Program-made: the position numbers and the translations under genes
Notes under the pieces: model-generated
What the model was told of the DNA's origin: nothing
The model's database searches: none
Seen by the model: the letters and a program-made list of their open reading frames with translations, nothing else
Virus genome (UHGV): UHGV-0119084
DNA: 19,527 bases
Direction: 5' to 3' (one strand)
Source: a virus
Shown: positions 5,175 through 7,665 of the stretch, piece after piece
How positions within the stretch are numbered: position 1 is the stretch's first letter
Layout: the number at the start of each line of letters is the position of its first letter

Positions 5175-5381
5175 TTAGTGATTCAGGCCGTTACCGCGTC
5201 CGTCGAGAAAAACTTCCACGAGCAAATCACGGGTATAAGTGCGCTCGATGCCGCGATGCAGATAAAGCCGTCCGCGTAAATTAGCTGATGCAGTCCAGGT
5301 ACCATCTTTGTGTTTGACCAGCATTCCTGGCATGACCGCACCTCGATTAACGGTCTGCGTTCCGTAATGTTGATGAACCAT
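5175..5381 (-). CDS. KilR-like cell-division inhibitor homolog (Rac KilR family); the ORF-track frame extends to 5465 but the internal ATG at 5381 has a strong RBS
   Basis: MVHQHYGTQTVNRGAVMPGMLVKHKDGTWTASANLRGRLYLHRGIERTYTRDLLVEVFLDGRG aligns by eye with Rac KilR as recalled (MIAHHFGTD...YIASANNIKKRKLYIRNL...TDRMIKVYLGRDG). A GGAG lies 6 nt upstream of the ATG at 5381. Sits in the kil position upstream of gam. Confidence 0.55.
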   Translation of the reverse strand: MVHQHYGTQTVNRGAVMPGMLVKHKDGTWTASANLRGRLYLHRGIERTYTRDLLVEVFLDGRGNGLNH

Positions 5382-5658
5382 AAAAACTCCTGCCCGTAAG
5401 CTGGGCTGCTGAACATATAAAGACTTCTGCGCGTATTCAGGCGGTGGATGGCCGCCGGTTGTCATAACTAAGTCGCCTCGTTGAAGCGACTAAGGTATGA
5501 AATGTTGAGTTAATTTCAGCTGGTCACACCGACGTTCACGCGTCCGTTTCACCCCTCGCACTCCCCGGAGCCTGCTGAAATTCAAGCTGCGGATCTAAGC
5601 GGTCATCGCAACGGTGAATCAGGTGATTGCCGTATCGTTGTGTTGTTGCGATGAATTC

Positions 5659-5687
5659 ATTTAAAACTATAGTTGTTTTATCGTCAA
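5659..5687 (-). promoter_or_regulatory. Candidate pL promoter with embedded operator half-sites
   Basis: On the minus strand: TTGACG (-35, plus 5682..5687), 17-nt spacer, TTAAAT (-10, plus 5659..5664). Nearly the same layout and spacer sequence as the pR candidate (TTGACT-aaaaacaaccatagttt-TAATCT). The flanking 5635..5740 is dense in GTTGTT/AACAAC motifs, including the palindrome AACAACaaaaGTTGTT. Confidence 0.5.
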
Positions 5688-5833
5688 CAACAAAAGTTGT
5701 TTTATTGGTTGTTTTAGATATAACTGGTTGTATTTAAGATGGATTTATTTTGTGACTTGCATCGCATAGCGATAACTGAAGCGAGGTCGTGGTGGTTTTT
5801 TGAACGGTTTGTGTGATGAGGGGAGGCAAAAGA

Positions 5834-5857
5834 AAACCCGGCACTGGGGCCGGGTTT
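5834..5857 (-). terminator. Intrinsic terminator ending the cI/gene A/gene B leftward unit (analogous to the lambda immunity-region terminator)
   Basis: Perfect 9-bp inverted repeat AAACCCGGC-actggg-GCCGGGTTT; on the minus strand the stem is followed by UUUUCUUUUG. Lies 76 bp downstream of the gene B stop and upstream of the pL candidate. Confidence 0.65.
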
Positions 5858-5932
5858 AGATGGATAAGAAAGGGTAATAGGGAATGAAAAATCGCTTTGC
5901 GTAATGCAAGGTGGCGAGCAGTTTCTTAAGCA

Positions 5933-6373
5933 CTAAAGAAAAAAGTACATTGATAGCTTATAAAGACCTGTTCCTGCAGCGATGATTGCTGGAACACCAA
6001 GCAATACCGCAAGCTTTGCGTCTGAAATCTTTCTATCGACAGCATCGATGGAGGGTTTTTTGGCTAGTGAATCTTTTATTGAATCGAGTCGCTCCAGAAC
6101 AGCGATCATGTTTCTGTCGATAGATTTGACATCTGTCTTAAGCTCATCAACGTCACGTCGGATATAGGACACATCAGACTCAAGCTTTGCAACTTTCGAT
6201 TCAAGCACATTATTACTCCCAGAGCCACCGCTACCACTTGATTGTAGCATAGGTACATTACCGCCAGACATACCAGCTGATTGAGAAAATGCTGCAGTGT
6301 GCAAAGATGATGATCTTGCCGCTTGTTCAAGCTTTTCAGTTAGGTTTGGAGCTTCGTAATAACCGTGTTTCAT
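5933..6373 (-). CDS. Uncharacterised tail-anchored membrane protein (146 aa): Gly/Ser-rich N-terminal region, central coiled coil, single C-terminal transmembrane helix; gene B of the rex-slot cassette
   Basis: ORF MKHGYYEAPNLTEKLEQAARSSSLHTAAFSQSAGMSGGNVPMLQSSGSGGSGSNNVLESKVAKLESDVSYIRRDVDELKTDVKSIDRNMIAVLERLDSIKDSLAKKPSIDAVDRKISDAKLAVLLGVPAIIAAGTGLYKLSMYFFL. The heptad-like segment LESKVAKLESDV...LERLDSIKDSL and the hydrophobic stretch AVLLGVPAIIAAGTGLY are visible directly. AT-rich by eye relative to the flanking lambda-like DNA. Starts 8 bp after gene A. Confidence 0.6.
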   Translation of the reverse strand: MKHGYYEAPNLTEKLEQAARSSSLHTAAFSQSAGMSGGNVPMLQSSGSGGSGSNNVLESKVAKLESDVSYIRRDVDELKTDVKSIDRNMIAVLERLDSIKDSLAKKPSIDAVDRKISDAKLAVLLGVPAIIAAGTGLYKLSMYFFL

Positions 6374-6381
6374 TGTTAATA

Positions 6382-6651
6382 TTATGACTTATTGGTTTTA
6401 GCTCTATCATGCTGATCGCGAATAAAGTCAGCGAGTTTAAGCATTAAATCTTCCGTCATGCGAATTGTTGCAATGTTGTACTTTACGTTTTCAGTGTCAT
6501 TACTACCATCAGCGCCCCATTCTGTAACATGCTGAAAGAAAGATATGGAGCCTAAGCGATCGTCATCTTCCCCAAAAGATGAATATCCAAATGCATCAGC
6601 ATATGCATCTACACAGTTATTTGATTTTTTTATAAGTTTTTTATCACTCAT
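6382..6651 (-). CDS. Uncharacterised small acidic protein (89 aa); gene A of the rex-slot cassette
   Basis: ORF MSDKKLIKKSNNCVDAYADAFGYSSFGEDDDRLGSISFFQHVTEWGADGSNDTENVKYNIATIRMTEDLMLKLADFIRDQHDRAKTNKS. An RBS-like GGAAAGG lies about 6 nt upstream of the ATG; Asp-rich; C-terminal predicted strand-helix (IATIRM then TEDLMLKLADFIRDQ). AT-rich. No family recognised. Confidence 0.55.
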   Translation of the reverse strand: MSDKKLIKKSNNCVDAYADAFGYSSFGEDDDRLGSISFFQHVTEWGADGSNDTENVKYNIATIRMTEDLMLKLADFIRDQHDRAKTNKS

Positions 6652-6730
6652 TTTTGCCTTTCCCGTAATGTTATTTTTATAAAGAATTCTTTCAGCGCAT
6701 TACCCAAAAGCCTCATCAGCACGCAGCTGA

Positions 6731-7420
6731 TTATCCGTGTTTCCTATACGTCTGCGGCATACTGCCAATAACCTTCCCGAAAATGAACACCCGGTTCATC
6801 TCGTCTTTCTCGATCGGGTCCCACGGTGAGTAGCTCTTGTTATCAGAGATAACCAGTAGCTTATCTTTCATCATTTGCAGGCGCTTTACATGGGCTGTGT
6901 CGTCGTACAGAAACGCATAGATACCATCACCGTCGAAAGATTTAACCGTGATATCAACGAACAGCAGATCACCTGGTTCGATCGTTCCTGACATGCTGTC
7001 ACCACGCACGTTAATGATGCGGATATTTTCCGCCTTCCTGCCATCGAACATGTGACGAGCATCGTCAAACGAGTACTCAACCGAGCGTAGAACTTCTACA
7101 AATTCACGGTTGATGACTCCCGGCCCGGCACTCACTTCTATATCAAGAACGTCAATCTTAAAGTATTTGGAATGGCTGACAGTTGATTGTATTGGTTGCA
7201 CTGTACTGTCTGACATATTTCCAACGCCAGAAGATAACCATTCTGCGCGCACACCCAAAGCGTTCGCGATCTCCACGATTTTAGTTGTTTGGTTAGCTTT
7301 CCCTGTTTCGATTTTCTGAATAGCAGCTTGGCTAACCCCGACCAAATCCCCAAGCGCCTTTTGTGTAAGGCCTCGCGCTAATCTGGCTTCTTTAAGTCTT
7401 TCTGAGAGTGTTGTTTTCAT
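6731..7420 (-). CDS. cI: CI-type prophage repressor: N-terminal HTH (Cro/C1 type) plus C-terminal S24/LexA-like autopeptidase domain
   Basis: MKTTLSERLKEARLARGLTQKALGDLVGVSQAAIQKIETGKA... followed by GDSMSGTIEPGDLLFVD (Ser) and AHVKRLQ (Lys), the S24 catalytic dyad context. I place the start at the ATG at 7420 (229 aa) because the ORF-track 251-aa frame reads through the promoter region. Confidence 0.85.
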   Translation of the reverse strand: MKTTLSERLKEARLARGLTQKALGDLVGVSQAAIQKIETGKANQTTKIVEIANALGVRAEWLSSGVGNMSDSTVQPIQSTVSHSKYFKIDVLDIEVSAGPGVINREFVEVLRSVEYSFDDARHMFDGRKAENIRIINVRGDSMSGTIEPGDLLFVDITVKSFDGDGIYAFLYDDTAHVKRLQMMKDKLLVISDNKSYSPWDPIEKDEMNRVFIFGKVIGSMPQTYRKHG

Positions 7421-7426
7421 AGTCCA

Positions 7427-7497
7427 AATGTACAACCAAGGTTTTATTCCATCAAACGAAAATGGTTGTTGACTAAAAACAACCATAGTTTTAATCT
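7427..7497. promoter_or_regulatory. Divergent pRM/pR promoter-operator region
   Basis: pR (plus): TTGACT 7469..7474, 17-nt spacer, TAATCT 7492..7497, then a GGAGG RBS and the cro-like ATG at 7525. pRM (minus): TTGATG (plus 7450..7455), 17-nt spacer, TACATT (plus 7427..7432), ending 6 nt before the cI ATG, so the cI mRNA would be leaderless as in lambda. A 9-bp inverted repeat ATGGTTGTT-gactaaa-AACAACCAT (7462..7486) overlaps the pR -35 and spacer; a further ACAACCA copy lies at 7432..7438. Confidence 0.55.
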
Positions 7498-7524
7498 TGA
7501 TTCAAATTAACCACGGAGGTTGTT

Positions 7525-7665
7525 ATGAATCCAGCTATCAAAACAGCGATCAATATCGTTGGTTCACAAAAGAAACTGGGCGCTGCCTGCGAAGTTTCAC
7601 AGCAGGCCGTCTATAAGTGGCTTCACAACAAAGCAAAGGTAAAGGCGTTTACCCGAATCAGGTAA
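7525..7665 (+). CDS. cro: Cro-like HTH protein (P22 Cro/YdaS-like), 46 aa, probably C-terminally truncated
   Basis: Translation MNPAIKTAINIVGSQKKLGAACEVSQQAVYKWLHNKAKVKAFTRIR; the HTH pattern (G.Q..LA...VS..AV..W) resembles P22 Cro and Rac YdaS. The last 10 codons read through iteron-like repeats and the stop lies in ori-like sequence. Confidence 0.6.
   Translation: MNPAIKTAINIVGSQKKLGAACEVSQQAVYKWLHNKAKVKAFTRIR

Follow-up and report, generated by a model that had tools for sequence, protein, structure and literature searches.

In natural operators of phage 434, position 5 of the half-site is occupied by G or T. The repressor of this phage recognizes 14-bp sites, of which the outer five base pairs on each side are contacted, the outer four on each side are conserved, and the central four are uncontacted; the reference site, ACAATNNNNATTGT, has T at position 5 (PMC1636474). 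Operators of phage lambda are reported as 18 bp long (PMC8630535). In the PaaR2/YdaS/YdaT system of CP-933P from E. coli O157:H7 (PMC8630535, PMC9986795), the intergenic repeats are 18-bp palindromes with the half-site GTTTAGTAA, and the repressor gene paaR2 has been described as leaderless, like lambda cI (PMC8630535). Here, we describe the corresponding region of UHGV-0119084, a virus genome of 19,527 nucleotides (nt; hereafter the window, i.e., the whole stretch of DNA that was analysed), which is a lambdoid prophage of E. coli. The motifs shared by its leftward early promoter (pL) and by the divergent cI (pRM) and rightward early (pR) promoters are likely to be the repressor operators of a lambda-type lysogeny switch, predicted here as 14-bp sites of the 434 type.

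The clustering of these motifs is evident from simple counts. GTTGTT occurs 27 times in the window versus 13.2 +/- 3.5 in shuffled sequences, none of which reached 27, with five copies in 5642-5713 and another five in 7410-7524. The stricter pattern ACAACNNNNGTTKT, allowing at most one mismatch, gives 12 strand-matches where 3.2 are expected (0/200 shuffles), and all except one of these lie at the two promoters. Scanning a phage collection and one genome for each species provided six further loci encoding a cI with the recognition helix of the window, VSQAAIQKI (a Klebsiella phage, Kosakonia, Klebsiella grimontii, Enterobacter, Providencia, and Symbiopectobacterium), and the cI N-terminal regions of these are 54–71% identical to that of the window; the closest phage relative below 99% is an uncharacterised Klebsiella phage, at 63% over this region. 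Across all seven loci, which span six genera, A[C/A]AAC-N4-GTT[G/T]T is present at two positions 47 bp apart upstream of cI (termed OR3 and OR1 of the right operator, OR), an ACGAA...GTTKT site lies between them in every one of the six other loci, and a further pair with a spacing of exactly 24 bp spans a TTGAC -35 sequence located 3' of the cI operon (OL2 and OL1 of the left operator, OL). The distance from OR to OL varies from approximately 0.9 to 3.3 kb among these loci, while the layout is unchanged. When a weight matrix (consensus TACAACTATAGTTGTA) was made from the other loci only, leaving the window out, four sites in the window scored 18.9–23.1 bits and the next match 9.5; the null maximum had a mean of 9.7 and reached 19.2 in 300 simulations. 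The same four sites carry the pattern ACAA-N6-TTKT (7432-7445, 7479-7492, 5663-5676, and 5687-5700) and have the 14-bp length, the ACAA...TTGT ends, and the 4-bp centre of the 434 class. By these comparisons, the best-fitting unit is a phage-434-like palindrome, ACAAC-YATR-GTTKT, and not the 25-bp repeat to which the initial annotation had drawn attention.

At the right operator, cI (6731-7420, minus strand) and the remnant of cro (7525-7665, plus strand) diverge from a 104-bp gap containing three to four such 14-mers, as is typical of lambdoid phages. Promoter candidates were read directly from the sequence. pRM (7427-7455, minus strand) consists of a -35 TTGATG (7455-7450), a 17-nt spacer, and a -10 TACATT (7432-7427), whereas pR (7469-7497, plus strand) combines a -35 TTGACT (7469-7474) and a -10 TAATCT (7492-7497) across a spacer of 17 nt, with a predicted start near 7504. 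OR3 (ACAACCAAGGTTTT, 7432-7445, plus strand, 20.7 bits) would lie in the pRM spacer; it is found at the same position in all seven loci, its left half is the best-conserved half-site, and it is invariant in 80 E. coli loci. OR1 (ACAACCATAGTTTT, 7479-7492, plus strand, 23.0 bits), likewise conserved in the seven loci, would lie in the pR spacer with a 1-nt overlap of the -10. Between the two -35 hexamers, and directly beside that of pRM, is the OR2 candidate (ACGAAAATGGTTGT, 7456-7469, plus strand), which has a degenerate left half and scores 8.3 bits, but its form, ACGAA[A/T]AT[G/A]GTT[G/T]T, is conserved at this position in the seven loci. Successive OR sites have start-to-start distances of 24 and 23 bp. 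Given predicted starts at 7420 for cI and approximately 7504 for pR, OR3 and OR1 are each situated in a promoter spacer and the centre of OR2 is at about -42 relative to both starts. This arrangement closely parallels that of lambda, in which divergent promoters (84 bp apart here, start to start) also have an operator in each spacer and a central operator approximately 42 bp from pRM, and in which operators are repeated at pL.

The same operator family is found at the leftward early promoter (5663-5700), as expected of a lambdoid prophage. The pL candidate (5659-5687, minus strand) has a -35 TTGACG (5687-5682), a 17-nt spacer, and a -10 TTAAAT (5664-5659), with a start predicted near 5652. OL1 (ACAACTATAGTTTT, 5663-5676, minus strand), located in the spacer with an overlap of the -10, is the top matrix match of all (23.1 bits) and occupies the same position in the seven loci; this strongest pL site had been overlooked in the initial annotation. 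OL2 (ACAACTTTTGTTGT, 5687-5700, minus strand, 18.9 bits) abuts the -35, and its start is separated from that of OL1 by exactly 24 bp in seven of seven loci. Approximately 30 bp of pL and pR can be aligned, beginning shortly before the -35 and running across the spacer to the -10, as GTTGTTGAC-N-AAAACAAC-TATAGTTTTAA, with a single 1-bp indel between the two 14-mers. The three pL copies quoted previously do exist (GGTTGT at 5707-5712, GGTTGT at 5726-5731, and AACAAC-aaaa-GTTGTT at 5686-5701), although two of them are of lesser standing. The first belongs to an isolated ACAACC half-site (5707-5713, minus strand) located 12 bp upstream of OL2, which varies among E. coli relatives (ACAGCC, ATAACC, and AAAACC forms) and whose role in the operator set is doubtful. 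The second is at best part of a half-operator, possibly an OL3 (ACAACCAGTTATAT, 5718-5731, minus strand), situated 31 bp upstream of OL2 with a perfect left half and a misfit right half. This -31 element, ACAACCAAATAAAACC (ACAACCAGTTATAT in E. coli), has ACAACC in its left half, is present in the window as well as in four of the other six loci, and shows almost no variation across 76 E. coli loci; its right part, A/T-rich and conserved, does not fit the operator.

A further comparison comes from relatives whose cI has a different helix, VAQPTIWRL, carried by ST104, 4A7, PhiR30_1, and many enterobacterial prophages. Their cI N-terminal region (the first ~100 aa) is 53–59% identical to that of the window, and they have ATACGCTTGCGTAT-type 14-mers at the same positions from the cI ATG. 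In the comparison with PhiR30_1 and 4A7, identity is 84–98% from ydaT onward as well as in kil and the leader (5237-5652), in 5743-5855, and in the cI C-terminal domain (6730-7182); for the flanks 5237-5652 and 5743-5855, the values are 92–98% with PhiR30_1 and 84–98% with 4A7. In contrast, 90 bp at 5653-5742, the cargo genes, and a block comprising the cI N-terminus, OR, and cro are non-homologous. Thus, as in other lambdoid phages, operators, repressor DNA-binding domain, and cro are exchanged jointly between phages that are, by sequence, heteroimmune, and this exchange pattern reads as the classical signature of an immunity region. The comparisons uphold the earlier proposals that both early promoters share one half-site family and that the prophage is of a distinct immunity type, with operators unlike those of lambda. 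The half-sites swap together with the cI DNA-binding domain and cro, as exchangeable modules of immunity. The block boundaries also delimit the left operator. The 90-bp pL/OL module (5653-5742, minus strand), swapped as a block in heteroimmune relatives, has its left edge at the predicted pL start (boundary 5652/5653). Because of these boundaries, 5653-5742 can be tied to this repressor and GTTGTGTTGTT at 5637-5647, which the initial annotation had included in its operator interval, is excluded; it was rejected as an operator since it lies in the transcribed leader, which is 98% identical in heteroimmune phages.

Joint exchange leaves room for another possibility, namely that the motifs are bound chiefly by the YdaS-type Cro or some other protein of the module, with cI reading something else in the 90–100-bp blocks. 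Since cro and the cI N-terminus are exchanged within one block, co-variation does not discriminate between cI and Cro, and the Cro helix opens with VSQ, like the cI helix. To our knowledge, cI and Cro share operators in all characterised lambdoid switches, which weighs against a Cro-only set of sites. The 14-bp geometry also matches the 434-like fold of cI, no other repeated motif was seen within the pL and OR blocks, and in CP-933P the PaaR2 and YdaS footprints overlap (PMC8630535). We therefore regard binding mainly by Cro or another module protein in place of cI as highly unlikely.

The cI protein itself argues for sites of the 434 type. The 229-aa repressor (6731-7420, minus strand) combines a 434-like helix-turn-helix domain (Pfam HTH_3, 5e-13) with an S24 autopeptidase domain (Peptidase_S24, 1e-18), and the self-cleavage residues of LexA-type S24 proteins can be read from its translation (Ala98-Gly99, Ser142, and Lys179); a self-cleaving S24 repressor is a further parallel to lambda. 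The solved structures that match it best are that of the 434 repressor DNA-binding domain (E 4.5e-9) and that of an engineered 434 variant (E 1.7e-9), and residues 5–68 align with 434 repressor residues 2–65 without a gap, as expected of a homologous domain. Like 434, the locus has 14-bp operators with ACAA/TTGT ends and a 4-bp centre as well as a tripartite OR. The first glutamine of the recognition helix is also retained (Gln31 here, Gln28 in 434), which we take to be the reader of the first A. The remainder of the helix is different, SQAAIQK versus TQQSIEQ (QAAIQK versus QQSIEQ at its core), and so are the half-sites: position 5 is C in 48 of 48, unlike the G or T of 434, and position 2 is C in 32 and A in 16 of the 48. 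Because of the helix SQAAIQK and the invariant C at position 5, the window is not of the 434 immunity type itself. By analogy with 434, Ala32 in place of Gln29 fits the tolerance of C or A at position 2 and Lys36 in place of Gln33 fits the invariant C:G at position 5. Other distinctions from 434 are the centre spacing, which is 23–24 bp here, and Cro, which is of the YdaS family rather than the 434 Cro family. The half-sites nonetheless share ACAA, so partial 434 cross-recognition with the repressor of this prophage may occur. A longer, 251-aa cI annotation, found in some phage records and in a protein-cluster representative, starts at an ATG at 7486, inside OR1. The start at 7420 is the likely one, as the upstream ATG is excluded by stop codons in relatives.

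Population data provide a separate view of the sites. Among 80 IMG/VR contigs with N-terminal regions 99–100% identical to that of the window, the four OR 14-mers (the fourth is described below) vary at 3 of 56 positions versus 14 of 48 outside them (p=0.0013). The OL block is present in 76 of the 80 contigs, 965–3158 bp from the cI ATG, while the remaining four are cut by contig ends; in these OL modules, located by BLAST, 6 of 42 positions vary inside OL1, OL2, and the -31 site compared with 22 of 48 outside (p=0.0014).

Several observations weigh against the operator interpretation or against the 14-bp unit. If only OL1 and OL2 are counted, 5 of 28 positions vary inside versus 23 of 62 outside, a depletion that is not significant (p=0.087). 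OR2 and the fourth site are individually inside the random score range, the seven loci are mutually related and do not constitute independent samples, the -10 sequences of pR and pL are weak, and a consensus promoter scan called none of pRM, pR, and pL. Finally, the facing repeat formed by neighbouring sites equals or exceeds the 14-mers in symmetry, with 6–9 of 9 positions matching at OR and 7–8 of 9 at OL across the seven loci.

This last point bears on the 9-bp inverted repeat of the initial annotation, which is exact as described (ATGGTTGTT at 7462-7470 and AACAACCAT at 7478-7486, 100% complementary, with a 7-nt gap). One could envisage a 25–26-bp repeat, GTTGTT-N7/8-AACAAC, straddling the pR and pL -35 sequences, as the actual operator, bound by a dimer or tetramer with half-sites facing outward. 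All 9+9 positions of the facing repeat match in both the window and Providencia, and two apparently paired changes are found among the seven loci; since it is so well kept, symmetry alone does not decide between the 14-bp and 25-bp readings. Other features do favour the 14-mer. The gap of the facing repeat is 7 nt at OR versus 8 at OL in every locus, whereas the N4 of the 14-mer never varies, and the centre of the facing repeat is asymmetric and contains the -35 hexamer, whereas the central YATR respects the dyad of the 14-mer. Under the 25-bp reading, the left half of OR3 would be left without a partner. Furthermore, the homologous 434 domain has half-sites approximately 10 bp apart on one DNA face with ACAA outermost, and in related repressors the OR3 position is occupied by a perfect 14-bp palindrome with no extended facing repeat. 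A 25-bp operator is consequently improbable. Each arm of the repeat constitutes a full half-operator (a flanking W, ACAAC, and the central Y-A-T), and the repeat as a whole (7462-7486, both strands) corresponds to the right half of OR2 and the left half of OR1 with the pR -35 in between. Accordingly, the motif set shared by both promoters stands, but the 25-bp repeat does not stand as a unit, being most likely two halves of neighbouring 14-bp operators.

The same 9-bp repeat might instead act as a nucleic-acid hairpin with no protein site, either as a terminator or attenuator of leftward read-through or as a cruciform. The consensus scan did list it as terminator-like on both strands, with a stem of 9 pairs, a loop of 7 nt, and a T-rich tail. 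It was rejected as a terminator since it is located between the two predicted start points, 7420 and ~7504, and would be transcribed from neither pR nor pRM. In addition, G-C accounts for just 3 of the 9 pairs, the same half-sequences occur at OR3 and the OL sites, where a hairpin is impossible, and the repeat is exchanged together with repressor specificity. A structural role can be almost entirely discounted relative to the 14-bp operators.

From the sequence, we infer repressor binding, the order of filling, pRM activation, and the transcription starts of this switch as follows. A cI dimer would bind 14-bp palindromes of the form ACAAC-YATR-GTTKT. Occupancy of OR1 in the pR spacer would block pR, and OR2, between the two -35 sequences, would help to repress pR while stimulating pRM, as in lambda. 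OR3 in the pRM spacer would shut off cI at high repressor levels, and OL1 and OL2 would cover pL in the same way. Cro of the YdaS family would presumably use the same sites; it is truncated in the window, which would leave only the repressor side. The cI mRNA would start at or next to the ATG and hence be leaderless. The initial annotation had noted that the pRM -10 candidate ends 6 nt before the cI ATG, and the comparison supports its prediction of a leaderless transcript: the -10 (TA[C/A]ATT) and the TTG of the -35 are kept in nearly all of the seven loci, while the 6–7 nt preceding the ATG are variable and without a Shine-Dalgarno sequence. In Providencia, the -10 is TATCTT, 7 nt from the ATG.

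A further candidate operator, ACCACGGAGGTTGT, is located at 7510-7523 (plus strand), over the cro Shine-Dalgarno sequence and 31 bp from OR1, with one mismatch to the stricter pattern. Its position corresponds to approximately +7 to +20 of the transcript predicted from pR. Across loci, its offset from OR1 is 30–31 bp, and the Providencia locus has a perfect ACAACCGAGGTTTT there. At this position, loci of the ACAAC family score +7 to +18 with the cognate matrix and -8 to -18 with the ATAC matrix, Symbiopectobacterium being the exception without a fourth site. In the ATAC family, the position is fixed and the matrix scores are reversed, except that two Providencia loci are slightly negative with both. 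Two loci with a third helix type carry perfect family-type sites there. The site is probably functional. The broader statement, that the right operator has four sites of which the fourth is a weak cognate 14-mer in at least two, probably three, specificity families, has in our estimation a slightly less than even chance of being correct. If bound, this would presumably be through cooperation with OR1, three helical turns away, resulting in a roadblock or in tighter repression of cro.

Like the present locus, CP-933P has four intergenic repeats of which the second and fourth have poor left halves (PMC8630535), and here it is likewise OR2 and the fourth site that depart from the 434-class pattern in their left halves. 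Both also have pL with matching operators beyond cargo genes, and a leaderless repressor gene, described for CP-933P, is predicted here; a YdaS-family Cro and a YdaT-family cII analogue are encoded by intact relatives. However, the repeats of CP-933P are equally spaced, as opposed to 24, 23, and 31 bp here, its half-site is GTTTAGTAA and the consensus here ACAACYA, its cargo is a toxin-antitoxin pair, and ydaT and most of cro are deleted in the window. The YdaT site TTGATT-N6-AATCAA was not found in an intact relative. TTGATTCAAATTAACCAC (7498-7515) was considered as a YdaT site and rejected, as it has 2 mismatches to that sequence and is not conserved in relatives, and also because the YdaT site of CP-933P sits at the end of ydaS rather than at a position equivalent to 7498-7515. 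Compared with lambda, the operator sequence is unrelated and shorter (14 versus 18 bp; PMC8630535), the repressor N-terminus belongs to another family, no N gene follows pL, and unknown cargo occupies the rexAB place; the leaderless cI predicted here is shared with lambda. ST104, BTP1, 4A7, and PhiR30_1 (VAQPTIWRL) share the backbone, leader, and replication genes, and their cI proteins are 53–59% identical over the N-terminal ~100 aa. Their 14-mers occupy equivalent positions, one of them, a weak site, overlying the cro ribosome-binding site, and PhiR30_1 also has a nearly identical cI C-terminal domain. Their half-sites are ATAC/GTAT, as opposed to ACAAC/GTTGT here. HK022 was considered as a characterised relative, given that the ST104 cI is annotated as 'similar to HK022 cI', but its cI N-terminus is lambda-type and unrelated, and for this reason the HK022 operators are uninformative.

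Very probably, then, this is an ordinary lambdoid operator set belonging to a very common E. coli immunity type. Of 5426 complete E. coli genomes, 1520 (28%) carry the segment comprising OR and the cI N-terminus at an identity of at least 95%, and one more has it at 85%. Database labels for this repressor/operator module are generic names only, and a literature search by protein accession and phage name found no experimental description of this immunity type. Our general understanding of such switches is unchanged by the set. The operator consensus W-ACAAC-YATR-GTTGT-W and the site map could be used to predict homoimmune prophages and incoming phages, to annotate pL, pR, and pRM in thousands of genomes, and to design reporter or induction tools. 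The set also adds a natural specificity variant to the 434 fold, with two putative rules: replacement of Gln29 by Ala accompanies relaxation at position 2, and replacement of Gln33 by Lys accompanies a strict requirement for C at position 5.

The copy of the switch in the window is incomplete. The top match of the window is E. coli SW070917, to which it is 100% identical save one deletion. Its leftward early genes are exo-bet-gam-kil, and pL is next in order; past pL are two open reading frames (ORFs) without assigned function, cI, the intergenic gap, and the cut cro, followed by the 3' part of O, P, ren, emrE, ylcJ, and ybcK. The deletion removed 1248 bp, with its junction at 7637-7641 in an AGGTA microhomology and the absent stretch corresponding to 5243-6490 of the intact relative L001, so that cro has lost its 3' half and O its 5' half (the first ~176 codons), while ydaT is gone, along with a boxA that lies 3' of cro in relatives. 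As a consequence, cro (7525-7665, plus strand) ends after codon 39, leaving 39 native and 7 foreign residues of a YdaS-family protein that in intact relatives has 76 aa (Pfam YdaS_toxin, 4e-17), a length found in 76 of 80 related contigs. The cII analogue of intact relatives, encoded just after cro, is of the YdaT family (Pfam YdaT_toxin, 3e-29). The same deletion junction was not found in one piece in any complete E. coli genome. In this copy, the repressor side of the switch is intact, unlike the lytic side and replication, and the prophage has probably kept immunity while losing switching and replication.

The boxA of intact relatives is perfect (CGCTCTTTAACAA) and located just 3' of cro (L001 ~5360-5375, a stretch deleted in the window); it is present though the left operon shows no N gene. 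The pL leader (5381-5652, minus strand, ~270 nt), which is 98% identical in heteroimmune phages, opens with a 10-bp stem (5645-5654 / 5603-5612), but its z-score versus shuffles is only -2.0. No N-like ORF was seen in this leader between pL and kil, and it has no similarity to the HK022 pL-nun region (putL). A put-like or other known RNA was considered and not supported, as there was no Rfam match at the gathering score or at E up to 1. The two ORFs between pL and cI (5933-6373 and 6382-6651, minus strand, co-oriented with cI) belong to phrog_3556 and phrog_4231; with regard to a defence role, PADLOC gave no meaningful match and PHROGs only families of unknown function. These cargo ORFs (5933-6651) occupy the rexAB place, where relatives carry many different cassettes, and the cI operon ends at a terminator-like hairpin (5834-5857, minus strand) with a 9-pair stem, including 6 G-C pairs, followed by a T-rich tail.

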